A DNA stretch of 64,000 nucleotides, taken from positions 209,677-273,676 of the forward strand of contig DATJLR010000002.1 in the NCBI GenBank assembly GCA_035509435.1. Reading direction: 5' to 3'. How positions within the stretch are numbered: position 1 is the first letter of the stretch; the number at the start of each line of letters is the position of its first letter. This DNA is from Minisyncoccota bacterium. GTDB taxonomy: Bacteria; Patescibacteriota; Minisyncoccia; UBA6257; 2-01-FULL-56-20. The position numbers and the translations under genes were made by a program. Of the stretch, positions 7,704 through 58,998 are shown piece by piece. The notes below the pieces were generated by a model. It ran no database searches, was not told the origin of the DNA, and was given only the letters and a program-made list of their open reading frames with translations.

Positions 7704-8336
7704 ATGCGGCCATTTCCTAAATCCGTCCTTGAGCAATACCCCAAGGAATTTTCGGTGTTCAAAAAGCTGCGCACGCCGGGCGATGTACAGGATCTTTTGA
7801 ACGCGCTCAAGATGAACTTCGAGACCACGCATGAGCGGTGCCGGTCGCCGCTGCTCGTTTTGCGCGACGGCAAAGCGCATTGCATGGAAGGCGCGCTTCT
7901 TGGCGCCGCCGCGCTGTGGAATCAGGGCCACCCACCGCTCTTGCTCGATCTCAAGACCGCCGATCCGGACGTGGACCATGTCATCGCGCTGTTCAAAGAC
8001 GGCGACCGGTGGGGCGCCGTCAGCAAGACGAATCACGCCGTTTTGCGTTACCGCGATCCCATCTTTATGAACGTGCGCGAGCTCGTGATGTCATACTTCA
8101 ATGAATATTTTTTGGACAGCGGCGTGAAGACCCTGCGCAGCTACTCCGCCGTGCCATTCAGCATGCTGCGCTACGGGGTGAAGTGGCTGACGACCGAGGA
8201 TGACCTGGACGACGCAGTCGTCGCGCTCGACCATGCGCGCCACACTCCGATTTTTAAAAAAGGCGCCGAACGGCGCCTGCGCCGCGCGGAGCCGGTGGAG
8301 ATCAAGGCAGGGAAGATCGTGGAGTGGAAGGTTTAG
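7704..8336 (+). CDS. hypothetical protein with a possible Cys-His-Asp triad
   Basis: 210-aa ORF. It carries a conserved-looking C (AHCMEG), H (DHVIALF) and D arrangement that recalls papain/transglutaminase-like folds. This is inference only. Confidence 0.45.
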   Translation: MRPFPKSVLEQYPKEFSVFKKLRTPGDVQDLLNALKMNFETTHERCRSPLLVLRDGKAHCMEGALLGAAALWNQGHPPLLLDLKTADPDVDHVIALFKDGDRWGAVSKTNHAVLRYRDPIFMNVRELVMSYFNEYFLDSGVKTLRSYSAVPFSMLRYGVKWLTTEDDLDDAVVALDHARHTPIFKKGAERRLRRAEPVEIKAGKIVEWKV

Positions 8337-8373
8337 CATTTTCATGAGAAGATTGATTTGTTATACTTGAAAT

Positions 8374-9648
8374 ATGAGTCCTCTCGAGAGACATAGTTCC
8401 ATGCGAACTGAGGCCGCTTTTACTCTCATCGAGCTTCTCGTCGTGATCGCGATCATCGCCATTCTCGCGGTGGTCGTCGTGCTGACACTCAACCCGGCCG
8501 AGCTCCTGCGCCAGAGCAGAGACTCCAATCGATTGTCTGACCTCAGCACCATAAGTGACGCAGTGAACCTCTATAACACGGATCAAGGGGGAAACTCTTC
8601 CTACACCTTGGGGGTCGCCTCCGATACTTATCTTTCGATCCTCGATCCCACGGCTACATCCACGACATCAGGAAATCAATGTTCGGGAATTGGCGTCGCG
8701 AGTGCTCCCGGGACCTACAGTTATCATTGCTCAGCGAGCAGCACATATCGTAATATCAACGCAACCGGCTGGATCCCGGTCAATTTTTCGACGCTTTCCG
8801 CGGGATCTCCCATATCAAGTCTTCCTATCGATCCAATCAATCAGACAAGCTCCGACCTCTATTACACCTATCAGACGAACGGAAGCCTATACAAGATCAC
8901 CGCTTTCATGGAATCGAGTAAATATGCGAAAGCTGGCATTATGGATGGAGGCACCGATCCTACCGTTGCAGAATCAGGTTCGGGGGTTGCGGCCATTCCC
9001 GACGTGGGAAGAGGCCTTATAGGTGACTGGCCGCTCAATGAAGGGGCTGGGGGTGCTGCGATTGATTGGGGCGGCGGAATGAACAACGGGACGTGGGGCG
9101 GTACACAGGCCGGAAGTTCGACGTATTATGGCTCTGGCAATAATGTGTTCCAATGGTCCGGATATTTCAATGGAACCAACGATTATGTGAGCGGTGCAGG
9201 CCTTGTTAGTTTTGGAAGTAGCGCCAATGGCACTATCCTGGCATGGATCAAGCCGTCTTCGTTGCCGGCTACCCAGACGATCCTGAGGCAAGGATTGCTT
9301 GGACAGTGTTATAGTTATGCCGCGTCCCTTCGTGGATCGACGCTCTATTCGGGCGATACTAACGGCGACTTTCTGCTTGGAGGTACGATCGCCACCGGAA
9401 CATGGCAACAGATTGCGGTCGTATTCACTCCCAGCGGGTCGCAAGGGTTTGTGAACGGAGCTGCCGTAGGCAGTAATGCGGACGGCCCTACCAATTGTAG
9501 TTCCGCCCAGAATTATTTTGCCATCGGCGTACAGGGGTATAATGCATCGTCGGCGCTGTTCTTTTCCGGATCGATGAGCGACGTACGTGTGTACGCGCGC
9601 GCCCTTTCATCGGGCGAGATCCAGCAGATCTATAATGCAGAGAAATAG
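8374..9648 (+). CDS. type IV pilin-like protein with a C-terminal LamG/ConA-like lectin domain
   Basis: Prepilin-type N-terminal methylation motif FTLIELLVVIAIIAILAVVVVLTLNP. C-terminal LamG signature (…SMSDVRVYARALSSGEIQQIYN). Paralog of the ORF at 57712-58998. Confidence 0.8.
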   Translation: MSPLERHSSMRTEAAFTLIELLVVIAIIAILAVVVVLTLNPAELLRQSRDSNRLSDLSTISDAVNLYNTDQGGNSSYTLGVASDTYLSILDPTATSTTSGNQCSGIGVASAPGTYSYHCSASSTYRNINATGWIPVNFSTLSAGSPISSLPIDPINQTSSDLYYTYQTNGSLYKITAFMESSKYAKAGIMDGGTDPTVAESGSGVAAIPDVGRGLIGDWPLNEGAGGAAIDWGGGMNNGTWGGTQAGSSTYYGSGNNVFQWSGYFNGTNDYVSGAGLVSFGSSANGTILAWIKPSSLPATQTILRQGLLGQCYSYAASLRGSTLYSGDTNGDFLLGGTIATGTWQQIAVVFTPSGSQGFVNGAAVGSNADGPTNCSSAQNYFAIGVQGYNASSALFFSGSMSDVRVYARALSSGEIQQIYNAEK

Positions 9649-9651
9649 ATA

Positions 9652-10257
9652 TTAATTCCTCCTCTCGAGCGCCGAGCCCAAGGTCTCGTCGTCCGCGAAT
9701 TCGATCTCGCCGCCGGTAGGAAGGCCGCGTCCGAGGCGGCTGACCTTCTTGGTGAGCGGCGCGAGCTCTTTCAATAAGAGCGACGCCTGAAAATCGCCGA
9801 GCGCCGTCGGGTTGAAGCCGAGGATGATCTCATCCGCCGCGCCGCCGAGCTCACCCTCTATATATTTTTTTAGGCTTGCCAGTCTGCTAGTTTGCCAGGC
9901 TTCCAAGTAACCAGTTTTTGGCACTGGGCCGACGATGAAGTATCGTCCGGTGAACTTTTTGGTGTTCTCGAGCGAGAGATAGTCCGTCTCTTTTTCCACC
10001 ACCATGATGACGCGCTGGTTCCGCGCCGGATTCGCGCAGACGTCGCAGAGCGCACCCTCGTTCTGATGGATGAAGAAGCACCGCTCGCAGATCTTGATAG
10101 CGCGGAGCGCGTCGATGCTTCCTGCCAGCGTGTGGAGCTGGTCTTTCGGCTGTCCGATCAGATAGAACGCCAGCCGCACCGCCTGGCGCGGCCCGATGGA
10201 CGGCAGCTCGGCGAGCGCGTCCACCACCTTTTGCACCGGCTCGGGAAGTTTCATCAT
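9652..10257 (-). CDS. recR: recombination protein RecR
   Basis: HhH N-terminus (LPSIGPRQAVRLAFYL), a C4 zinc finger (CERC…CDVC) and a Toprim domain. Confidence 0.9.
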   Translation of the reverse strand: MMKLPEPVQKVVDALAELPSIGPRQAVRLAFYLIGQPKDQLHTLAGSIDALRAIKICERCFFIHQNEGALCDVCANPARNQRVIMVVEKETDYLSLENTKKFTGRYFIVGPVPKTGYLEAWQTSRLASLKKYIEGELGGAADEIILGFNPTALGDFQASLLLKELAPLTKKVSRLGRGLPTGGEIEFADDETLGSALERRN

Positions 10258-10277
10258 GAGGTAATTATAAATTAGGA

Positions 10278-10670
10278 CTAGGATTTTTCTTGAATCATCT
10301 TTTCCAGCTGTGAAATTAAGTCCTCTGCTGTTTTATAAGTAATGAACTTGTTGGTAATAAAAACCAATGAATGGGAAATCACGCTTTTTTCTTGGTAAAC
10401 ACAAATTATTGGACGACTATAAATATCTGCCCATCCCAATTCTATGCCTTGGCCGGTGGACGGATAGGAAACTTCGGCGATTACGAGGTCGCAATGTTCG
10501 ATTCGCTCTTTTGTGATCTGTTCTGGTTTATCTTTCTCCTGCGGGAGAAAAACTTCATTCATCTTATAGAGCTCAGAACTTTGGATAGATTTATAGAGAT
10601 CATCTTTCCATGGAAGTGCGCTTGCGTGTGTTACGACAATTTTCATATAGCCATTATAGCCTATGTTCAA
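10278..10670 (-). CDS. nucleoside 2-deoxyribosyltransferase-like protein (low-GC insert)
   Basis: 130-aa ORF. The motif VIAEVSYPSTGQGIELGWA resembles the N-deoxyribosyltransferase / SLOG-type active-site loop. Local GC is about 35%, against about 65% for its neighbours. Confidence 0.45.
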   Translation of the reverse strand: MNIGYNGYMKIVVTHASALPWKDDLYKSIQSSELYKMNEVFLPQEKDKPEQITKERIEHCDLVIAEVSYPSTGQGIELGWADIYSRPIICVYQEKSVISHSLVFITNKFITYKTAEDLISQLEKMIQEKS

Positions 10671-10709
10671 ATTTCGAGATACTTGAAGACCAGAAAGCCG
10701 TGCAAAGCC

Positions 10710-12071
10710 TCAGAGCGCCGGCAGCTCGTCGTAGCGCTTCTCCACGGTCTTGAACGTCGTGTGCTCGCCGTCGAAGAAGAAGTCGATGTCCTTCAGCGCG
10801 CCGTTGCGGTGTTTGGCGATGCGCAGGTGGACGGTGTTGTCGAGCGAGGAAGCCGTGTCGTTCGGGTTGCGCTCGTCGCGATAGAGGAACATGACGACGT
10901 CCGCGTCCTGCTCGATGGAGCCCGAGTCGCGGAGATCGGAGAGGCGGGGGATCTTGTGGTCGCGCTGCTCGAGTCCGCGCGAGAGCTGCGAGAGCGCGAG
11001 CACCGGCACTTTGAGCTCGCGGGCGAGCGCCTTGAGGCCGCGCGAGATCTCGGTGATCATGTTCACCATGCTGTCGCTCTGGCGCCGTGCGTTGATCAGC
11101 TGGAGGTAATCCACGACGAGCAGGTCAAGGCCATGCTCCACCTGCAGGCGACGCGCCATGGATCGCATCTGGAGGACGTTCAGCGACGGCGAATCGTCGA
11201 TATAGAGCTTGATGTCCGAGAGGCGGTCGAGCGCGCCCTGGATCATCGTGAACTCTTCGTCGTTGCGGATCCGGCCGGTGAGGATGTTCCAGAGCGGCAC
11301 CTGCGATTCCGCGGAGATGATGCGGTCCTGCAGGGATTCGCGGGACATCTCGAGCGAGAAAATGCCGACGCTCGCGCCTGCCTTCGCGGCATTGCGCGCG
11401 ATGTCCAATGCGAGCGACGTCTTGCCGACCGACGGCCGCGCGCCGAGGATGATGAGTTCGGACTTGTGCAGTCCGGAGAGCGTTTCGTCGAGCGCGGGGA
11501 AACCGGTGGGTACGCCGCGCAATTTTCCGCCGCCGGCGTGAAGGTTCGCGATGCGCTCGTATGCCGTCGTAAGGTCTTCCTTCAAAGAGACGAAATTCTG
11601 CGGCATCGACTTCTGCGAGATGGAAAGGATCTTCTGCTCGACGCCATCGAGCAGGTCTTCCACGTCATCGCCCGAGAACACGTCCTCCGCGATCTCCGCT
11701 GATGCCTTGATGAGGTCGCGCAGTATCTTCTTCTCCTTTACGATCGTGGCGTAGTGCTGCACGTGCGACGCGCTCGACACATGGTTCGTGAGCTCGGAAA
11801 GGTATGTGGCGCCGCCGACCTCTTTGAGGGTCTCATGCTCCTTCAGATAATTGGTAAGGCTCAGCACATCGATCGGCTGGTGCTTCTCGTAGAGTGAAAG
11901 GATGGCGGCGTAGATGCGCTCGTGCGCCGGCGTGTAAAAATCCGGCGGCGTCAAAATGTCCGCCACGCGGAAGATCGCGTTCTTGTCGATGAGGACCGAG
12001 CCGAGCACCGCCTGCTCCGCTTCCAGATTCTGGGGCGGAAGCTTCAGTTGTGATTTCTTGCCTGGGGGCAT
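10710..12071 (-). CDS. dnaB: replicative DNA helicase DnaB
   Basis: N-terminal domain LEAEQAVLGSVLID, Walker A GARPSVGKTSLALD, 453 aa with no intein. Confidence 0.9.
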   Translation of the reverse strand: MPPGKKSQLKLPPQNLEAEQAVLGSVLIDKNAIFRVADILTPPDFYTPAHERIYAAILSLYEKHQPIDVLSLTNYLKEHETLKEVGGATYLSELTNHVSSASHVQHYATIVKEKKILRDLIKASAEIAEDVFSGDDVEDLLDGVEQKILSISQKSMPQNFVSLKEDLTTAYERIANLHAGGGKLRGVPTGFPALDETLSGLHKSELIILGARPSVGKTSLALDIARNAAKAGASVGIFSLEMSRESLQDRIISAESQVPLWNILTGRIRNDEEFTMIQGALDRLSDIKLYIDDSPSLNVLQMRSMARRLQVEHGLDLLVVDYLQLINARRQSDSMVNMITEISRGLKALARELKVPVLALSQLSRGLEQRDHKIPRLSDLRDSGSIEQDADVVMFLYRDERNPNDTASSLDNTVHLRIAKHRNGALKDIDFFFDGEHTTFKTVEKRYDELPAL

Positions 12072-12080
12072 GTATTAAAA

Positions 12081-13478
12081 CTATTTGAAAAACTTTTTGA
12101 CAAGAGAGGAGCCCTCCGCCCCGTCCCTTACCTCATATCCTACGCTTTCCAGCTCCTTCCTCAAAGCGTCGGACTGGATAAACTGTTTATTTCCGCGGAA
12201 TGCCCGATATTTGTCGAATTTTTCCGTGATTTCCGCGGGAATTTCGCCTGCGCCCGCGACCGCCTCTTTTATATCGAGCATGGCTGTCCGGTCGAATGCC
12301 TTCAAAAACGCCACTTTTTCCCCGGGCGAAAGTTTATCATCTTTTAACATCTCGAAAACGATCGAAAATGCCTTCGGGGTGTTCAGGTCCTCGTCGAGAG
12401 CGGCGTGGAACGCTTTTTTCCACTTGGCGCCGGCGGCCGTTTCTTCGGGCGTGTCGGTGTTTTCGCCCGCATCGTGCGCCGCTTTCTTTGCGCGGAGCGC
12501 AAGCGTATAGAGATTTTCCAGTTCGCTCTTTGCCTGCGCAACGACGCGTTCGGAAAAATCGAGAGGGGAGCGATAATGGTGCGAGAGGACGATCCATCGC
12601 AGGACGACGGCAGGATTCGCGGAAAGGAATTCGCGGATGGTGATGAAGTTGCCGACGCTCTTGGACATCTTCCTGCCCTCCACGGTGAGTGCGCCGACGT
12701 GCACCCAGAATTGGACGAACGGCTTGAGGCCGGACGCGGATTCCTGTTGTGCGATCTCCGCTTCGTGATGGGGAAACTTGAGATCGATCCCGCCGCCATG
12801 GATCTCGTATTGCGGGCCGAAATAGAATTCGGAGATCGCGGTGTCCTCGATGTGCCATCCGGGGCGCCCGTCGCCGAGCGATGACGGCCAGCGCGGCTCA
12901 AGGTCTTTGAGCGACGTCTGCGTAAATTTCCAGAGGCAAAAATCCCCCTTGTTGCGCTTGTTCACCGATTCGTCGATGCGCGTGACGCCGTCCTCGGCCT
13001 GTTCCACGGTGCGGCCGGAGAGCTTGCCGTAATCGGCATCTTTTGAAATATCAAAGTACCATCCGTCGCCGTCGATCTTGTACGCGAAGCCCTTGTCGAT
13101 CAATCGCTCAACCTGGGCGACGATCTGCGTGATGAACTTCGTCGCGGGAGCGTAGGTGGTCACGGCGTCGACGCCGAGCACTTTCATGTCCTCGAAATAT
13201 GCTTCGGTAAAGAAGCGGGCGACCGCGTCCGTCTTGGTGTTGTCCGTCATCGCGCGGGCGATGATCTTGTCGTCGACGTCGGTGATGTTCTGGACGTACG
13301 CCACGTCGTAGCCGCGCGCACGGAGCAGTTTTGCGAAAAAATCAAAGAAAATATACGTGCGCGCGTTCCCGATATGGAGGTAGTCGTACACCGTCGGCCC
13401 GCACACAAAGAGCCGGATTTTCTTCTGGTCCGGCAGCGGCTCCTCGGTACGCGAGAGGGAGTTATAGAGATGGAGCAT
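12081..13478 (-). CDS. cysS: cysteine--tRNA ligase
   Basis: HIGH motif (HIGNARTY) and KMSKS motif (KMSKSVGNF). Confidence 0.9.
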   Translation of the reverse strand: MLHLYNSLSRTEEPLPDQKKIRLFVCGPTVYDYLHIGNARTYIFFDFFAKLLRARGYDVAYVQNITDVDDKIIARAMTDNTKTDAVARFFTEAYFEDMKVLGVDAVTTYAPATKFITQIVAQVERLIDKGFAYKIDGDGWYFDISKDADYGKLSGRTVEQAEDGVTRIDESVNKRNKGDFCLWKFTQTSLKDLEPRWPSSLGDGRPGWHIEDTAISEFYFGPQYEIHGGGIDLKFPHHEAEIAQQESASGLKPFVQFWVHVGALTVEGRKMSKSVGNFITIREFLSANPAVVLRWIVLSHHYRSPLDFSERVVAQAKSELENLYTLALRAKKAAHDAGENTDTPEETAAGAKWKKAFHAALDEDLNTPKAFSIVFEMLKDDKLSPGEKVAFLKAFDRTAMLDIKEAVAGAGEIPAEITEKFDKYRAFRGNKQFIQSDALRKELESVGYEVRDGAEGSSLVKKFFK

Positions 13479-20898: not shown

Positions 20899-20971
20899 GC
20901 CCCCATAGCTCAGTCGGTAGAGCAGCTCCCTTTTAAGGAGAGGGTCCCAGGTTCGAATCCTGGTGGGGGCA
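20899..20971 (+). tRNA. tRNA-Lys (anticodon UUU)
   Basis: Cloverleaf folded by hand: acceptor GCCCCCA/TGGGGGC, D-arm GCTC/GAGC, anticodon loop CTTTTAA, T-arm CCAGG-TTCGAAT-CCTGG, discriminator A. CCA is not encoded. Confidence 0.85.
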
Positions 20972-21004
20972 CGCCGCGCGGAAAGGTATCCATTCATATT
21001 TTCA

Positions 21005-44067: not shown

Positions 44068-46476
44068 ATGGCGGCTTTTTACATCTTTCTCGGCATCGTG
44101 GTCGGAGCAGTCGCCATTGTCGTGATATTTTTTGTCGTCCGCGCCGCGGGGCGCCGTCGCATTTTCGATTCCCTGAGGACCTCGCTTTTTTTGATAAAGG
44201 TCCCCAAAGCTGCGCCGGCGGACCAGGCAAAATCGGGAGGAGGCGAGGGGGGAGATTTCAAGACGGAGATCGCGCACTTTGAGCAGTTGCTCGGAAGCCT
44301 TACGTCGATCAAACGGCCGGTGATCTTCGAGATCGCCGTGCCGCACGTGGGAGAGGAGATCCACTTCTATATCGGTGTGCCGAAACTTTCCGCCGAGACC
44401 GCGATAAAACAGATCCAGGGATTGTGGAACGGCGCGAGCGTGGAGCTCGTCCAGGACGATTTCAACATCTTCAACCCGAACGGCGCGACCGCGGCGGCGT
44501 ACGTCGCCCAGAAGGAAAACGTCGCGTTGCCGGTGAGAACGTACGCGGAACTCGGCGTTGATACTTTTGAATCCATCGTCGGCGCGTTCGCAAAGATCAG
44601 CGAGATCGGGGAAGGCGCGTCGCTCCAGATTCTCCTGCGTCCCGCGCCGAGCGGCTACAAAAAAGAGATCAGCCATCACATCGAATCGCTCAAAAAAGGC
44701 GAGCCGATCAAAAAAGTGCTCGGGCGCGGGATCGCGTCCGGCGTGAGCGTGTCGAACGTCGCCGACGTCTTCAATCCGAAAACAAAAGAGCAGCAGGCGG
44801 AGGAGAAAAGCAATCGCGTGGTGGATGACGAGGCGGTGAAGGCGCTCCAACTGAAGATCGCAAAGCCGCTCTTTGAGGTGAACCTGCGGCTCGTGGCGTC
44901 GGCGGGATCGCCTTTTCAGGCGAACGATATTCTGGATGGCCTCACGGCCGGTTTCAGCCAATTTGGCAGCCCGATGCGCAACGAATTCCGGATCGTAAAG
45001 CCGCGGAATCCAAAGAATATCGTGAATGATTTTATTTACCGCATTTTTGACGGCGGCGAGAAGATGGTGCTCTCGGCCGAGGAGATCGCGAGCATCTACC
45101 ACCTGCCGATCTCGTCCACGGAGACGCCGCGCGTAAAGTGGCTGAAGGCAAAGGAAGCCGCGCCGCCGGAGAATCTGCCCACGAGCGGGATCCTGATCGG
45201 GGACGCGACGTTCCGCGGCACCGCGAAGCCGGTGTATATCACGGACGACGACCGGCGCCGCCACATCTACGTGATCGGACAGACCGGCACCGGTAAATCC
45301 ACGCTGCTCGGCAACATGATCATAGAGGATATCCAGTCGGGCAAGGGGGTCGCGATCATCGATCCGCACGGCGACCTTGTTGAGAACGCGCTCGGCTTCG
45401 TGCCGAAGGAGCGGCTGGATGACGTGATCTATTTCAATCCCGGCGACCTCGAGCGCCCGCTCGGCCTCAATATGATCGATTTCAATCCGGCGCGGCCGGA
45501 GGAGAAGACATTCATCGTGAACGAAATGCAGAGCATCTTCAACAAGCTGTTCTCGCAGGAAACGATGGGCCCGATGTTCGAGCAGTATATGCGCAACGCG
45601 CTGCTCCTTTTGATGGAGGATTCCGCGAACGAACCGGCCACGCTCGTGGAGGTGCCGCGCATATTCACTGACTCGCAGTACCGCACGCGCAAGCTCGCGC
45701 GCATCCATAATCCCGTCGTCATCGACTTCTGGGAAAAGGAGGCCGTCAAAGCCGGCGGCGAAGCGTCGCTCGCGAACATGACGCCGTACATCACCTCAAA
45801 GTTCAATAACTTCATTTCGAACGACTATATGCGGCCGATCATCGGCCAGCCAAAGTCCGCGTTCAACTTCCGCGAGGTGATGGACAGCAAAAAGATCCTG
45901 CTCATCAATCTTTCCAAGGGCAAGATAGGGGACATCAACGCCGGGCTTCTCGGCATGGTCTTCACCGGCAAGATCCTCATGGCCGCGCTCTCGCGCGTGG
46001 ACATCGCGGACGCCGACAAGCGCACCGACTTCAACCTATATATAGATGAGTTCCAGAACTTTACGACCGATTCCATCGCGACGATCCTCTCCGAGGCGCG
46101 CAAATACCGGCTCAACCTCACGATGGCGCACCAGTTCATCGCCCAGCTGGAGGACAAGATCAAGAACGCTGTCTTCGGCAACGTCGGCTCCGAGCTCGTG
46201 TTCCGCGTGGGTGTCCAGGACGCCGAATTCCTCGTAAAGCAGTTCGAGCCCGTGTTCAACCAGAACGATCTCGTGAACATCGACAACCTCAACGCCTATG
46301 CAAAAATTTTGATCAACGGGCAGACGTCAAAACCGTTCAACCTCAAGATCGCCACCACGTCATGGGGCGGCGGCGACAAGGCGCTTGCGGAGAAGCTCAA
46401 AGAATATTCCCGCACCAAGTACGGCCAGGACCGCCAGGTGATCGAAGACGATATCTATAGAAGGTTGAGGGCATAG
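44068..46476 (+). CDS. VirD4/TraG/TraD-like type IV coupling-protein-family ATPase
   Basis: N-terminal TM helix, Walker A GQTGTGKSTLLGN, Walker B LYIDEFQNF and the sensor-like motif EARKYRLNLTMAHQ. Confidence 0.6.
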   Translation: MAAFYIFLGIVVGAVAIVVIFFVVRAAGRRRIFDSLRTSLFLIKVPKAAPADQAKSGGGEGGDFKTEIAHFEQLLGSLTSIKRPVIFEIAVPHVGEEIHFYIGVPKLSAETAIKQIQGLWNGASVELVQDDFNIFNPNGATAAAYVAQKENVALPVRTYAELGVDTFESIVGAFAKISEIGEGASLQILLRPAPSGYKKEISHHIESLKKGEPIKKVLGRGIASGVSVSNVADVFNPKTKEQQAEEKSNRVVDDEAVKALQLKIAKPLFEVNLRLVASAGSPFQANDILDGLTAGFSQFGSPMRNEFRIVKPRNPKNIVNDFIYRIFDGGEKMVLSAEEIASIYHLPISSTETPRVKWLKAKEAAPPENLPTSGILIGDATFRGTAKPVYITDDDRRRHIYVIGQTGTGKSTLLGNMIIEDIQSGKGVAIIDPHGDLVENALGFVPKERLDDVIYFNPGDLERPLGLNMIDFNPARPEEKTFIVNEMQSIFNKLFSQETMGPMFEQYMRNALLLLMEDSANEPATLVEVPRIFTDSQYRTRKLARIHNPVVIDFWEKEAVKAGGEASLANMTPYITSKFNNFISNDYMRPIIGQPKSAFNFREVMDSKKILLINLSKGKIGDINAGLLGMVFTGKILMAALSRVDIADADKRTDFNLYIDEFQNFTTDSIATILSEARKYRLNLTMAHQFIAQLEDKIKNAVFGNVGSELVFRVGVQDAEFLVKQFEPVFNQNDLVNIDNLNAYAKILINGQTSKPFNLKIATTSWGGGDKALAEKLKEYSRTKYGQDRQVIEDDIYRRLRA

Positions 46477-55616: not shown

Positions 55617-57674
55617 GTGAAGGGTACCATGGAAGCAGTCATCCCATCCGGTCGGCCGGCATATCAAAAATTTCTCGTCACATTCCTTTTATATTTCGCG
55701 ACCGGCGTCGGCGCGGAATATCTTTTTTATTCATTGCACACGGGACCGACGGTGCTCTGGCTGCCGGCCGGGATCGCGCTCGCGCTCATCGTGATATGGG
55801 GATATTGGCAATGGATCCCGATCGCGCTTGCGCAATTGTTCGTGCTCATCGCAAATCCGGCGCGGCCCGACGCTTTGTTCATTGCGGTGAACATCGTCGC
55901 GTATACGGGCCAGGCCCTCTTTGGCGGATATGTCCTTAAAAAATTGAAGTTCGACGGCGCGATCGTGCATCTTCGGGATGTGATCGTGCTGTTATGCGCG
56001 GGCGCCGTGACGACGGCGATCGCCCCCACCGTCCTTATCTGGGCTTCGGTATTGTTGTACGCGCATCCGTTCTCGTTCTGGACGAGCTGGAGCCGGATAT
56101 GGGTGGGCGGCCTTATGGGAACGCTCATCATCACGCCGCTCATCACGTCGTGGTACTACAGCGCACGCGAGGATTTTGTCGGCCTTGACTGGAAGCGATG
56201 GGGCGAGGCGGCCGTCGCCATGGTCGCCGTCGGCGTCACTACCTATTTTCTTTTTTGGACGACCGTGCTGGGCGACTATGGATTTGTCATGATCTATGTC
56301 CTGTTCGGGATCCTGTTTCTGGTGGGGTTCCGTTTCCGCCCGCGCGTCCTTCTTGTGGCGCTTTCTCTCTCTGCGGCATTCGGGATCACGGGAACGTTCG
56401 TTTTGCACGCGGGAGCCGCAACGCTCGGAACCCAGTTCTTCTCCGACGAACTTTTCTATATCCTCATTGCGCCGATATTCCTTATCATGGGGGTCCTCGT
56501 GGCCGAGCGCCAGCTTATCATCTTCCAGCTCGAGCAGGAGAAGCGCGGGCTCGCGGCGGCCATGGACCGGCTTTCCGAGCAGGACCGTTCCAAAAACGAG
56601 TTCATCAGCGTGTTCGCGCATGAACTGCGCAATCCGCTCGCGCCCGTCGTGAGCACACTTGAATATCTGCGGCTCAATGAAAAAGATCCGGAGAACATGA
56701 AGGTGGTGGAAGTGGCGGACCAGCAGGTGCGCATCGTGCGGCGGCTCCTGGATGACCTGCTCGATGTTTCGCGCATCAACCAGCGGAAGCTCAATTTGCA
56801 AAAAGAGACGGTTGCGCTCAGTCCGATCATCCAATCAGCCGTTGCCGCGGTACGGCCATTCTATGGTTCCCGTGGGCACTCCTTCTGGTTCTCGCTTCCG
56901 GATGACGAAGTGTATGTGAACGCGGATCCGGCGCGGATGACGCAGGCGCTCATGAACCTCCTTTTCAACGCCGGAAAATATACGCCGCCGGGCGGCATGA
57001 TCGAGCTTGTCTGCCGGCGCGAGGATGATGCGGTGTCGATCGTCGTGAAGGACAACGGCGCCGGCATTTCTCCGGACGCCATGCCGCTCATCTTTGAGCC
57101 GTTCCAGCAGGCATCGCGCGAAGCGGCAATGGGAAGCGGCCTTGGCCTGGGGCTTTTTATCACGCGGCAGCTGGTGGAGATGCATGGCGGAACGATCGCA
57201 GCGGCAAGCGCGGGGATCAACAAGGGAGCGGAATTCGTGCTCCGTTTTCCTGCGTTGCAGCGCGCGCCGGCAACGCTCGGCGTCCGTGCCGCGACCGCTT
57301 TCGGCGCGCCGGGCCGCTCGCTCGACATCCTTATCGTCGATGACAATATCGCCGGGGCGCAGGCGTTGCAAAAATTGCTTGTGCTGCGCGGCCACTCGGT
57401 ACGCATTGCCCTCGGCGCGGATGACGCACTGATGGCGATCGGCGATGCGGTCCCTGACATGGTCCTTTTGGACATCGGCTTGCCGGGAATGAACGGCTAT
57501 GACCTTGCGCGGGAGATGCGGAAGCGCGCCGCCAGGATCCGCATCGTTGCGCTTACCGGATACGGACAGGAAGAGGACCGGCGCGAAGCGGAGCGCGCGG
57601 GATTCGACCATCATCTTACGAAGCCGATCGGCCTTGCGGACCTTGAGCGCGTGTTCGTTGCGGTCGCGCGGTAG
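55617..57674 (+). CDS. hybrid sensor histidine kinase / response regulator with an N-terminal MASE1-like membrane domain
   Basis: About 8 TM helices. H-box HELRNPLAPV. HATPase GSGLGLGLFITRQLVEMHGG. C-terminal receiver ILIVDDN…DMVLLDIGLPGMNG. Own TATAAT promoter after the upstream terminator. Confidence 0.85.
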   Translation: MKGTMEAVIPSGRPAYQKFLVTFLLYFATGVGAEYLFYSLHTGPTVLWLPAGIALALIVIWGYWQWIPIALAQLFVLIANPARPDALFIAVNIVAYTGQALFGGYVLKKLKFDGAIVHLRDVIVLLCAGAVTTAIAPTVLIWASVLLYAHPFSFWTSWSRIWVGGLMGTLIITPLITSWYYSAREDFVGLDWKRWGEAAVAMVAVGVTTYFLFWTTVLGDYGFVMIYVLFGILFLVGFRFRPRVLLVALSLSAAFGITGTFVLHAGAATLGTQFFSDELFYILIAPIFLIMGVLVAERQLIIFQLEQEKRGLAAAMDRLSEQDRSKNEFISVFAHELRNPLAPVVSTLEYLRLNEKDPENMKVVEVADQQVRIVRRLLDDLLDVSRINQRKLNLQKETVALSPIIQSAVAAVRPFYGSRGHSFWFSLPDDEVYVNADPARMTQALMNLLFNAGKYTPPGGMIELVCRREDDAVSIVVKDNGAGISPDAMPLIFEPFQQASREAAMGSGLGLGLFITRQLVEMHGGTIAAASAGINKGAEFVLRFPALQRAPATLGVRAATAFGAPGRSLDILIVDDNIAGAQALQKLLVLRGHSVRIALGADDALMAIGDAVPDMVLLDIGLPGMNGYDLAREMRKRAARIRIVALTGYGQEEDRREAERAGFDHHLTKPIGLADLERVFVAVAR

Positions 57675-57711
57675 CGGGAAGCGCCTGCGGGACGCGTGAT
57701 ATAATTTTTCT

Positions 57712-58998
57712 ATGCGCGCACCAGGCCCTTTCCGGCAGAGGAAGGGTTTTACCCTTATTGAACTCCTCGTGGTCATCGCGATCATCGCCATTCTGGCGGT
57801 CGTCGTTGTTTTGACATTGAACCCGTCGGAGCTTTTGAAGCAGTCGCGGGATTCCAACCGCATCTCCGACATGGCAACGCTCAGTTCCGCGCTCAGCCTG
57901 TATTCCACGGACCAGTCCGGAGGGTCGGGGTTTTCCATGGGTACGCCGGGCTGGGTTTATGTTTCCATTCCTGATCCGCAGGCGACCTCCACGGCGGGAG
58001 ACCAGTGCCAAGGGCTCGGCCTGCCGACGCTTCCTGCGGGATACGCCTATCATTGCGCCGCGTCGTCCACCGTCCGGAGCGTCACGAACGCCGGATGGGT
58101 TCCGGTGAATTTCGCGGCGATCTCGTCTGGGGCGCCGCTCAGCTCGCTGCCGTTGGATCCGGTGAACGCTTCGTCCTCGCGCCTTTATTACACGTACGAA
58201 ACGAACGGCACGCAGTATGAAGTGACGGCAGTGATGGAGTCGCAGAAATACAAAGCGGGAGGAAGCGGCGATGTGATCACGCCTGACGGCGGACGGCTCG
58301 CCTCGGTATACGAAAAGGGGACCGCGCTCGGCCTTGAGCCGCTCGATTACGGCGACGCCTCGCTTGTCGGGTTCTGGCCGATGGATGAAGGATCCGGCAC
58401 GGTCGCGTACGACGACTCCGGCAGCAATGCGACCGGCACATGGAACGGCGGACAGGTGGGAACGGCAAGCGGCTATTACAGCGCGGGGAAAATCGGATCA
58501 TATGCCGGCGCCTTCGACGGGTCGAGCACCTATCTTGCGAACACCGGGAACAATCCGGCGCTTGTGCTCACGAACGCCATGACGCTCGTTGCGTGGGTGA
58601 AGGTGAACGCGTCGGGCACGGACATGAAGGTGATCTCCAAGAGGCCGTCGTACGTGCTTACCGTCTTCAGCAATAACATTCCGGAGACGGAGATATTCAT
58701 CGGAGGCACTTCAAAAGACACGCGCAGCGCAAGCGGCGGCACGACGCTCGTGAACGGCGTATGGTACCAGCTCGCGGGCACATATAACGGCAGTACGCTT
58801 ACTACGTACGTGAACGGCGTGCTTGACCGCCAGATCTCCGTAAGCGGCACGATGGACAGCACGGCGTACGTCCTTGACCTTGGGAAGACCGCCGACGGCA
58901 CGAATGCCAATTTCAACGGCCTTATTGATGACGCGCGGGTGTATAACCGGGCCCTGTCCGCCGCGGAAATAGCGGCGCTCTATAACGGCGGCAAGTAA
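57712..58998 (+). CDS. type IV pilin-like protein with a C-terminal LamG/ConA-like domain (paralog of 8374-9648)
   Basis: GFTLIELLVVIAIIAILAVVVVLTLNP prepilin motif and the LamG C-terminus (…DDARVYNRALSAAEIAALYNGGK). Confidence 0.8.
   Translation: MRAPGPFRQRKGFTLIELLVVIAIIAILAVVVVLTLNPSELLKQSRDSNRISDMATLSSALSLYSTDQSGGSGFSMGTPGWVYVSIPDPQATSTAGDQCQGLGLPTLPAGYAYHCAASSTVRSVTNAGWVPVNFAAISSGAPLSSLPLDPVNASSSRLYYTYETNGTQYEVTAVMESQKYKAGGSGDVITPDGGRLASVYEKGTALGLEPLDYGDASLVGFWPMDEGSGTVAYDDSGSNATGTWNGGQVGTASGYYSAGKIGSYAGAFDGSSTYLANTGNNPALVLTNAMTLVAWVKVNASGTDMKVISKRPSYVLTVFSNNIPETEIFIGGTSKDTRSASGGTTLVNGVWYQLAGTYNGSTLTTYVNGVLDRQISVSGTMDSTAYVLDLGKTADGTNANFNGLIDDARVYNRALSAAEIAALYNGGK

Follow-up and report, generated by a model that had tools for sequence, protein, structure and literature searches.

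What does a type IV pilin do with a lectin-like module at its C-terminus, and what does it mean that one bacterium encodes several such proteins? This question is raised by two genes, here called copy 1 and copy 2, in a 64-kb stretch of DNA from contig DATJLR010000002.1 (positions 209,677 to 273,676). We refer to this whole stretch as the window. It belongs to a metagenome-assembled genome of Candidatus Paceibacterota, a phylum for which the NCBI taxonomy currently uses the name Minisyncoccota, and the organism is a bacterium of the candidate phyla radiation (CPR); an earlier note, made from the window's letters, had thought of an episymbiotic bacterium. On balance, we favour the reading that each gene codes for a modular type IV pilin, a complete pilin carrier from which a linker of ~35 residues leads to a LamG/ConA-like effector, and that the products are displayed on a pilus, probably as adhesins. 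The parts of the two genes are listed below; all positions are window coordinates and both genes lie on the + strand.

8374 to 9648 (+): copy 1, gene for a modular type IV pilin of 424 amino acids; HUC01638.1
8374 to 8418 (+): predicted leader peptide of copy 1, 15 amino acids from the first ATG or 6 from the ATG at 8401, ending in Ala(-1)
8419 to 8916 (+): pilin module of copy 1, with F1-T-L-I-E5, a hydrophobic alpha1N, alpha1 at residues 18-71, a beta head at 84-178 and C103/C119
8917 to 9015 (+): linker of copy 1 between the pilin head and LamG, residues 182-214
9016 to 9645 (+): LamG/ConA-like beta-sandwich of copy 1, residues 215-424; no LamG of a retrieved relative is more than 39% identical
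57712 to 58998 (+): copy 2, gene for a modular type IV pilin of 428 amino acids; HUC01691.1
57712 to 57747 (+): predicted leader peptide of copy 2, 12 amino acids, basic, ending in Gly(-1)
57748 to 58251 (+): pilin module of copy 2, with F1 to E5, alpha1 at residues 15-68, a four-strand head at 81-173 and C99/C115
58252 to 58353 (+): linker of copy 2, residues 181-214, conserved in sequence, with a predicted local distance difference test score (pLDDT) below 50
58354 to 58995 (+): LamG/ConA-like module of copy 2, residues 215-428; pLDDT above 90

Coordinates, Pfam matches, structure models and fold searches agree that each of the two open reading frames (ORFs) joins a prepilin motif to a LamG domain, as had been proposed in the earlier note. 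The N_methyl family PF07963 matches copy 1 with 28.3 bits and copy 2 with 36.1 bits (gathering cutoff 21.2), and the NCBIfam model TIGR02532 for prepilin-type cleavage/methylation scores above its cutoff as well. Laminin_G_3 (PF13385, cutoff 27.6) reaches 69.6 bits in copy 1 (E 4e-19) and 96.7 bits in copy 2 (E 2e-27), and in both copies the match spans the whole profile (positions 1-151). The two proteins can be aligned end to end with 42% identity (E 3e-101), and a six-frame scan of the 64 kb located F[TS]LxE prepilin motifs in these two genes only. At NCBI, 100% identical proteins are deposited as HUC01638.1 (copy 1) and HUC01691.1 (copy 2), both under the name 'MAG TPA: LamG-like jellyroll fold domain-containing protein' of Candidatus Paceibacterota bacterium, and many relatives are called 'prepilin-type N-terminal cleavage/methylation domain-containing protein' by JGI. 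Hence, both domains have already been annotated by standard pipelines. In the JGI/ENA gene calls, copy 1 starts at the second ATG (8401), which yields a protein of 415 amino acids.

The N-terminal half of both proteins has the architecture of a type IV pilin. In the AlphaFold2 (AF2) models, which were built from alignments of 57 and 60 relatives, alpha1N is continued in both copies by a long alpha1 helix that lies against beta strands. For copy 2 (mean pLDDT 80), the helix spanning residues 15-68 is broken at N37-P38 and the head comprises residues 81-173; the linker (181-214) stays below a pLDDT of 50 and the beta-sandwich (218-425) is mostly above 90. The model of copy 1 shows the same layout (pLDDT 84; predicted template-modelling score 0.75). 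Furthermore, the N-terminal 60-80 residues of the family profile match solved type IV pilins and GspG.

The putative cleavage site reads ...RQRKG before and FTLIE after the cut in copy 2, and ...RTEAA before and FTLIE after it in copy 1. In 57 aligned relatives, F1, T2, L3, E5 and the cysteine pair of the pilin head are invariant. The residue preceding Phe1 is Ala in 34/57 and Gly in 23/57 family members, and copy 1 carries Ala (residue 15, positions 8416-8418). The conservation seen in the alignment implies selection on the determinants of processing and assembly, and the prepilin peptidase of these organisms would need to accept Ala at position -1.

A separate observation concerns the linker. 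Despite the low pLDDT of this segment (copy 2, residues 181-214), its sequence follows a consensus, ...GGSNDVISxDGGTLASVYEKGSxLGLEPLDYGD..., and it may represent a docking or interaction segment, not a passive tether.

The C-terminal module adopts a two-sheet beta-sandwich of the jelly-roll type. It resembles known carbohydrate-binding folds, and its fold neighbours are AbnA domain 4, the neurotoxin HCN, sialic-acid-binding modules of CBM40, pentraxins, laminin LG and neurexin LNS; the C-terminal part of the family profile matches AbnA domain 4 and an S-layer-domain protein. The structure check that the earlier note had suggested for a C-terminal LamG/ConA-like fold is thereby answered in its favour, by the AF2 models as well as by the fold searches.

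The divergence of the two copies is distributed unevenly along the chain. Identity amounts to 72% at residues 1-40, 53% at 41-200, 38% at 201-265 and 25% at 266-428, and the lowest values are found at residues 281-400, which cover most of the sandwich. The column entropy of the family is 0.65-1.3 bits in the pilin head and linker, except for residues 61-80 (1.8 bits), and rises to 2.4-3.1 bits at residues 281-400. Across the family, conservation returns in the final LamG strand and in the helix at the C-terminus (...IDDVRVYNRALSAAEI...). The earlier note had assigned the differences to a surface-exposed middle region and proposed to compare this region between the paralogs and across strains. 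The comparison was carried out between the paralogs and across the relatives, and the identity and entropy profiles both place the variable part in the effector module (25% identity, as against 53% in the pilin head) and not in the middle of the protein.

At the DNA level, a blastn search with each gene against the window returned only an 87-nucleotide (nt) stretch of the other paralog, located in alpha1N, with 82% identity. Synonymous codons are identical at just 27-50% of the sites where the amino acid is identical. Judged from this short shared stretch and from the diverged synonymous codons, copies 1 and 2 are an old duplication. A diversity-generating retroelement and cassette conversion of the pilE/pilS type were considered as sources of the variation and rejected, since the 64-kb window holds no DNA repeats or template and the synonymous sites have diverged.

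The same partition into a conserved and a variable half recurs in the family at large. At E<1e-5, copy 2 has more than 1600 matches and copy 1 more than 1000, and nearly all of these relatives comprise 400-440 amino acids and share both Pfam domains. A search of 1.84 billion representatives with just the carrier (residues 1-215) gave 1015 representative clusters at E<=1e-30. For carrier and LamG separately, 194 full-length relatives were grouped by single linkage at >=50% identity. All carriers fall into one cluster (median identity 58%) and the LamG parts into 147 clusters (median identity 36%). Carrier similarity and LamG similarity are correlated with r = 0.31, and in 3662 of the 5614 pairs whose carriers are at least 65% identical, the LamG parts are identical at 40% or less.

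The LamG type of copy 2 belongs to a cluster of 22 retrieved proteins (21 others; linkage at >=50%), a grouping which is partly an artefact of hit selection, and is 64-80% identical to five tabulated members of it. For copy 1, no counterpart above 39% was present among the retrieved matches. When the LamG part of copy 1 was used alone as a query (9016-9645), one match of 31% was returned and the protein itself, which the full-length query had recovered, was missed; this apparently reflects the limited sensitivity of the word index and not biology, and the search is not usable as evidence that the module is unique.

The two genes are not the only members in this genome. At least four dispersed paralogs (HUC01424.1, HUC01477.1, HUC01638.1 and HUC01691.1) lie on one contig of 439,088 bp, spread over ~270 gene numbers. 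HUC01424.1 (P0123; L086 1238-2488) and HUC01477.1 (P0186) are situated ~210 and ~160 gene numbers upstream of copy 1, outside the window. In pairwise comparisons, the four proteins are 53-68% identical over residues 1-265 and 25-33% identical in their LamG parts. Because such different LamG modules are mounted on a shared carrier, the four paralogs probably differ in binding specificity.

In addition, the carrier is found with other modules. Some metagenomic relatives (P0316, P0334, P0225, P0286 and P0266) share it at 53-64% identity over ~200 residues, and in these proteins fn3 repeats, a beta-propeller of the Vgb_lyase/SGL type, PPC, or DUF2341 together with LamG replace the LamG module or are added to it. 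A scan of reference genomes with the pattern [AG]FTLIELL[VI] gave, among the matches listed, full-length matches with pilin and LamG at 25-31% identity on contigs labelled Gammaproteobacteria, Sedimentisphaerales and Phycisphaerales. This pattern is common to most pilins; the scan returned mostly unrelated pilins and is of little use for the taxonomic distribution.

These features can be assembled into a wider proposal. The LamG pilins of Paceibacterota could constitute a receptor-binding repertoire similar to the tail-fibre tips of phages, with a conserved carrier, interchangeable and fast-diverging effectors and several members per genome, in which the exchange of modules would set the host range of an episymbiont. 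Module exchange would then underlie both the weak correlation (r = 0.31) and the occasional carriers that bear fn3, beta-propeller or PPC modules in place of LamG. Copy 2 would stand for a widely shared 'core' LamG type, and for the remaining LamG modules nothing alike was retrieved. We put this proposal forward tentatively; it may hold, and our own leaning is rather against it.

How could a single modular pilin of this kind work? Starting from the established biology of type IV filaments, we infer a course that leads from processing and pilus assembly to a minor or tip location, a class of ligand and a role in host attachment. The prepilin would be inserted into the membrane, where the prepilin peptidase would cut the short basic leader after Gly or Ala at -1 and methylate Phe1. 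The type IV pilus (T4P) machine would then polymerise the subunit through its hydrophobic alpha1N and Glu5. Within the filament, the subunit would most likely be of low abundance, that is minor and tip-proximal, and its LamG module would project outward and attach to a ligand on the surface of a host cell or a substrate; this ligand would most likely be a glycan. Genes for T4P biogenesis are reported to be common in Parcubacteria/CPR genomes (PMC5220378). By analogy, the minor or tip role is favoured by PilB and PilC of Streptococcus sanguinis and by PilX1 of TM7x, and also by the number of paralogs and their orphan loci. The suggestion of a pilus adhesin in the earlier note appears plausible in the light of precedents in S. 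sanguinis PilC (PMC9934059) and Saccharibacteria PilX1 (PMC11623550).

Several points weigh against this picture. Neither the window nor the surroundings of six relatives (within ~8-10 kb) contain T4P machinery: in the 64 kb, a Pfam search of the ORFs and a scan for GspE/PilT/PilD motifs, which covered 88 sequences, detected no pilB, pilC, pilM or pilT and no prepilin peptidase (Peptidase_A24-like). T4P machinery was seen just in distant pilin loci caught by the generic FTLIELL pattern. Ala instead of Gly at position -1, as in copy 1 and 34/57 relatives, is non-canonical for bacterial prepilin peptidases. The invariant Glu5 and the full-size pilin head fit an incorporation along the filament body equally well, and the assignment to a minor or tip position draws on analogy and on the location of the genes outside pil operons. 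Lastly, LamG folds bind proteins and other ligands too.

The filament body is the starting point of the alternative that survives best. Whole filaments could be composed of this pilin of 420 amino acids as major subunit; LamG domains would then coat a thick pilus. In favour of this, the pilin module is intact, including the invariant Glu5 and the disulfide pair, and the carrier is both strongly conserved and widespread, as the 1015 representative clusters attest. A flexible linker would place LamG outside the filament core, and a location in the filament body is left possible by Raynaud et al. (PMC8179133). However, the four divergent paralogs of the genome are scattered among housekeeping genes and do not reside in a pil locus. 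Moreover, the modular pilins characterised to date are minor subunits, the major pilins of Saccharibacteria and S. sanguinis are small, and a small pilin gene (196 amino acids) adjoins one of the relatives. A role as major subunit is thus improbable, although of the explanations that compete with a minor, tip-proximal adhesin it is the one we take most seriously.

Alternatively, the class III signal could serve as a membrane anchor or export device for an unpolymerised surface binding protein that captures substrates, in the manner of the archaeal 'bindosome'. The lack of pilus machinery at the six relatives' loci would agree with this explanation, as would the resemblance of LamG to the carbohydrate-binding modules of glycosidases. 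A match to the bindosome protein BasA in NCBIfam (E 0.007) is far below the cutoff and amounts to noise, and membership of that family was rejected. The conservation of the whole pilin head, the cysteine pair and Glu5 throughout the family would be hard to explain if just an anchor was needed, and we regard the anchor as unlikely.

The modular pilin adhesin remains the reading we prefer, and the next question is how its genes are expressed. Copy 2 is preceded by a sensor kinase gene, and both copies are preceded by promoter-like elements:

55617 to 57674 (+): hybrid histidine kinase with MASE1, HisKA, HATPase_c and Response_reg domains; a neighbour of copy 2 whose adjacency is not conserved in relatives
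57697 to 57705 (+): TGaTATAAT, an extended -10 box within the 37 nt that separate the kinase gene from copy 2; it stops 6 nt short of the copy 2 ATG
8359 to 8367 (+): TGtTATACT, an extended -10 box that stops 6 nt short of the copy 1 ATG; recognised by consensus match and by positional enrichment across the window

The earlier note had correctly described a MASE1 hybrid kinase directly upstream of copy 2, as its domains and the gap of 37 nt between the two genes confirm; the further suggestion that this kinase points to regulated expression has not stood up. In favour of co-transcription with, or control by, the kinase, both genes lie on the same strand with this short gap, and no terminator-like hairpin separates them. 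Nevertheless, a MASE1 kinase is found at 0/6 loci of relatives in other genomes, which represent six different neighbourhoods, and it is missing even at the locus of copy 2's closest relative (77% identity), whose gene follows that of a UvrD-type helicase. The arrangement in the gap, a -10 box 6 nt from the ATG, recurs at copy 1, at the third paralog P0123 (TGaTATACT) and at numerous unrelated genes of the window, and no DNA-binding response regulator adjoins the kinase or copy 2. A conserved kinase-pilin unit was rejected, the adjacency being without conservation at the six loci. Control of copy 2 by the kinase thus has little probability in our view; nothing supports a functional coupling, and read-through from the kinase gene is possible in a gap without terminator.

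With its own -10 box abutting each ATG, each pilin gene is most simply understood as an independent transcription unit, probably producing a leaderless mRNA. This arrangement is frequent in the window. TATAAT-like hexamers, often with an upstream TGn, occur 6-8 nt before the start in 15/62 crude ORFs (for instance upstream of 1775, 2590, 7704, 9652(-), 13565(-) and 46720(-)), compared with ~0-2 at other offsets, and a Shine-Dalgarno-like motif precedes just 3/62. The accumulation of -10 boxes together with the scarcity of Shine-Dalgarno motifs suggests that this Paceibacterota genome relies chiefly on leaderless mRNAs, as far as the window's sequence represents it. A literature search for leaderless transcription in Patescibacteria yielded no paper.

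Copy 1 is flanked by a hypothetical protein of 210 amino acids and by RecR, copy 2 by the MASE1 kinase and by DinB. The six loci of the relatives feature a UvrD-PDDEXK helicase; RmuC, RRM and RecR; a dCache_1 protein and the small pilin; DprA-TopA and RelA; FtsA-FtsZ-Gmad2; and LepA and DivIC, respectively. The ORF of 210 amino acids directly upstream of copy 1 (7704-8336, + strand) has no Pfam match and carries TGgTATAAT 6 nt before its start. One relative, P0013 (L004 10001-11251, on a 190-kb contig), is located at RecR-DnaB-CysS, which is the site of copy 1 here (window 8374-13478). It carries a LamG of the copy 2 type, which shares 70% identity with that of copy 2 and 28% with that of copy 1. 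At this site, the sequences would be accounted for either by a replacement of LamG or by a very fast divergence in the lineage of the window.

The weakest of the alternatives, a competence pilus whose LamG captures DNA or another uptake substrate, follows a proposal of DNA uptake for CPR type IV pili (PMC5220378) and could appeal to neighbours in DNA metabolism (RecR, DinB, UvrD-like, and DprA-TopA on the relative's contig L088), but we consider it very unlikely, as such neighbours vary from locus to locus and count among the usual housekeeping genes in small genomes, the structural neighbours of LamG bind glycans or proteins and not DNA, and Saccharibacteria mutants in T4P-2 pilins retained normal competence (PMC11623550).

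Two further features of the window lie apart from the pilin genes. At 20899-20972 (+), ARAGORN reports a 'tRNA-Stop' with the anticodon TTA. A suppressor tRNA was rejected, as the Rfam tRNA alignment (71.9 bits) gives the loop CUUUUAA, that is tRNA-Lys(UUU) with a G27-A43 mismatch. At 44068-46476 (+), an ATPase of 802 amino acids matches HerA/DUF87, T4SS-DNA_transf, TrwB and TraG-D_C, and from these matches its product looks like a coupling protein of the VirD4/TraG type; no other conjugation genes were recognised nearby in the Pfam scan of the window's ORFs.

The interest of modular pilins in these organisms derives from their lifestyle. Host recognition and attachment in CPR/Patescibacteria are largely unknown and almost no Paceibacterota have been cultured. 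Type IV pili are leading candidates for these functions, and lectin-like minor pilins have recently been implicated in Saccharibacteria. With at least 1000 clusters at 50% identity, the present family offers candidate determinants of host specificity, whose modules could be produced and tested on glycan arrays with no need to grow the organism.

How do these proteins compare to known systems? The most distant likenesses concern the LamG module. AbnA domain 4 (PDB 5HON), CBM40 and the clostridial neurotoxin HCN are parts of secreted enzymes or toxins and not of pilins, and because they are just 15-24% identical, their ligand specificity cannot be transferred. The haloarchaeal TafC of Tat-fimbriae (NF052521) is likewise filament-associated and gives a weak match in the LamG region (41 bits, E 1e-10). 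It is, however, an archaeal, Tat-secreted protein without a class III signal, and membership of its family was rejected, the 41 bits falling short of the family cutoff of 410 and covering the LamG region only.

PilC of S. sanguinis (PDB 7OA7/7OA8) is an analogue that has been characterised by experiment. Its ConA-like module binds glycans and is part of a tip complex (Shahin et al. 2023, PMC9934059). In contrast to the proteins described here, which have a full-size pilin and no immunoglobulin (Ig)-like module and are encoded by orphan genes, PilC combines a short, unstable pilin moiety with an Ig-like module and is encoded in the pil locus; the family profile did not match it at E<=1, which places the two copies outside the PilC family. 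PilX1 of Nanosynbacter lyticus TM7x is considered a putative minor pilin from its sequence and expression, with a predicted jelly-roll similar to L-type lectins (Grossman et al. 2024 preprint, PMC11623550). Both PilX1 and the present proteins are Patescibacteria pilins with a C-terminal beta-jelly-roll, and for PilX1 a glycan-dependent binding of the host has been proposed. PilX1 belongs to another phylum, its gene lies within a T4P locus and its jelly-roll is missed by domain databases, whereas PF13385 is clear here. Going by these descriptions, PilX1 is the nearest analogue within Patescibacteria.

The most direct counterpart is the catalogue of modular pilins by Raynaud et al. (2021, PMC8179133), whose definition applies to both copies. 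There, pilin with PF13385 ranks among the 15 commonest architectures, and the representatives given for these 15 include several CPR proteins. The layout is the same, namely an N-terminal signal (IPR012902/PF07963) and pilin, a short linker and a C-terminal PF13385. The catalogue is purely bioinformatic and gives no description of this Paceibacterota subfamily, the conserved carrier of 200 residues, the repertoire of paralogs or the extreme divergence of LamG. As the architecture has already been annotated and catalogued, the value of the present analysis resides in the pattern of the family and not in this pair of genes. The addition to the catalogue, again from bioinformatics, is the combination of a conserved carrier and a hypervariable LamG with a repertoire of several paralogs in one genome.

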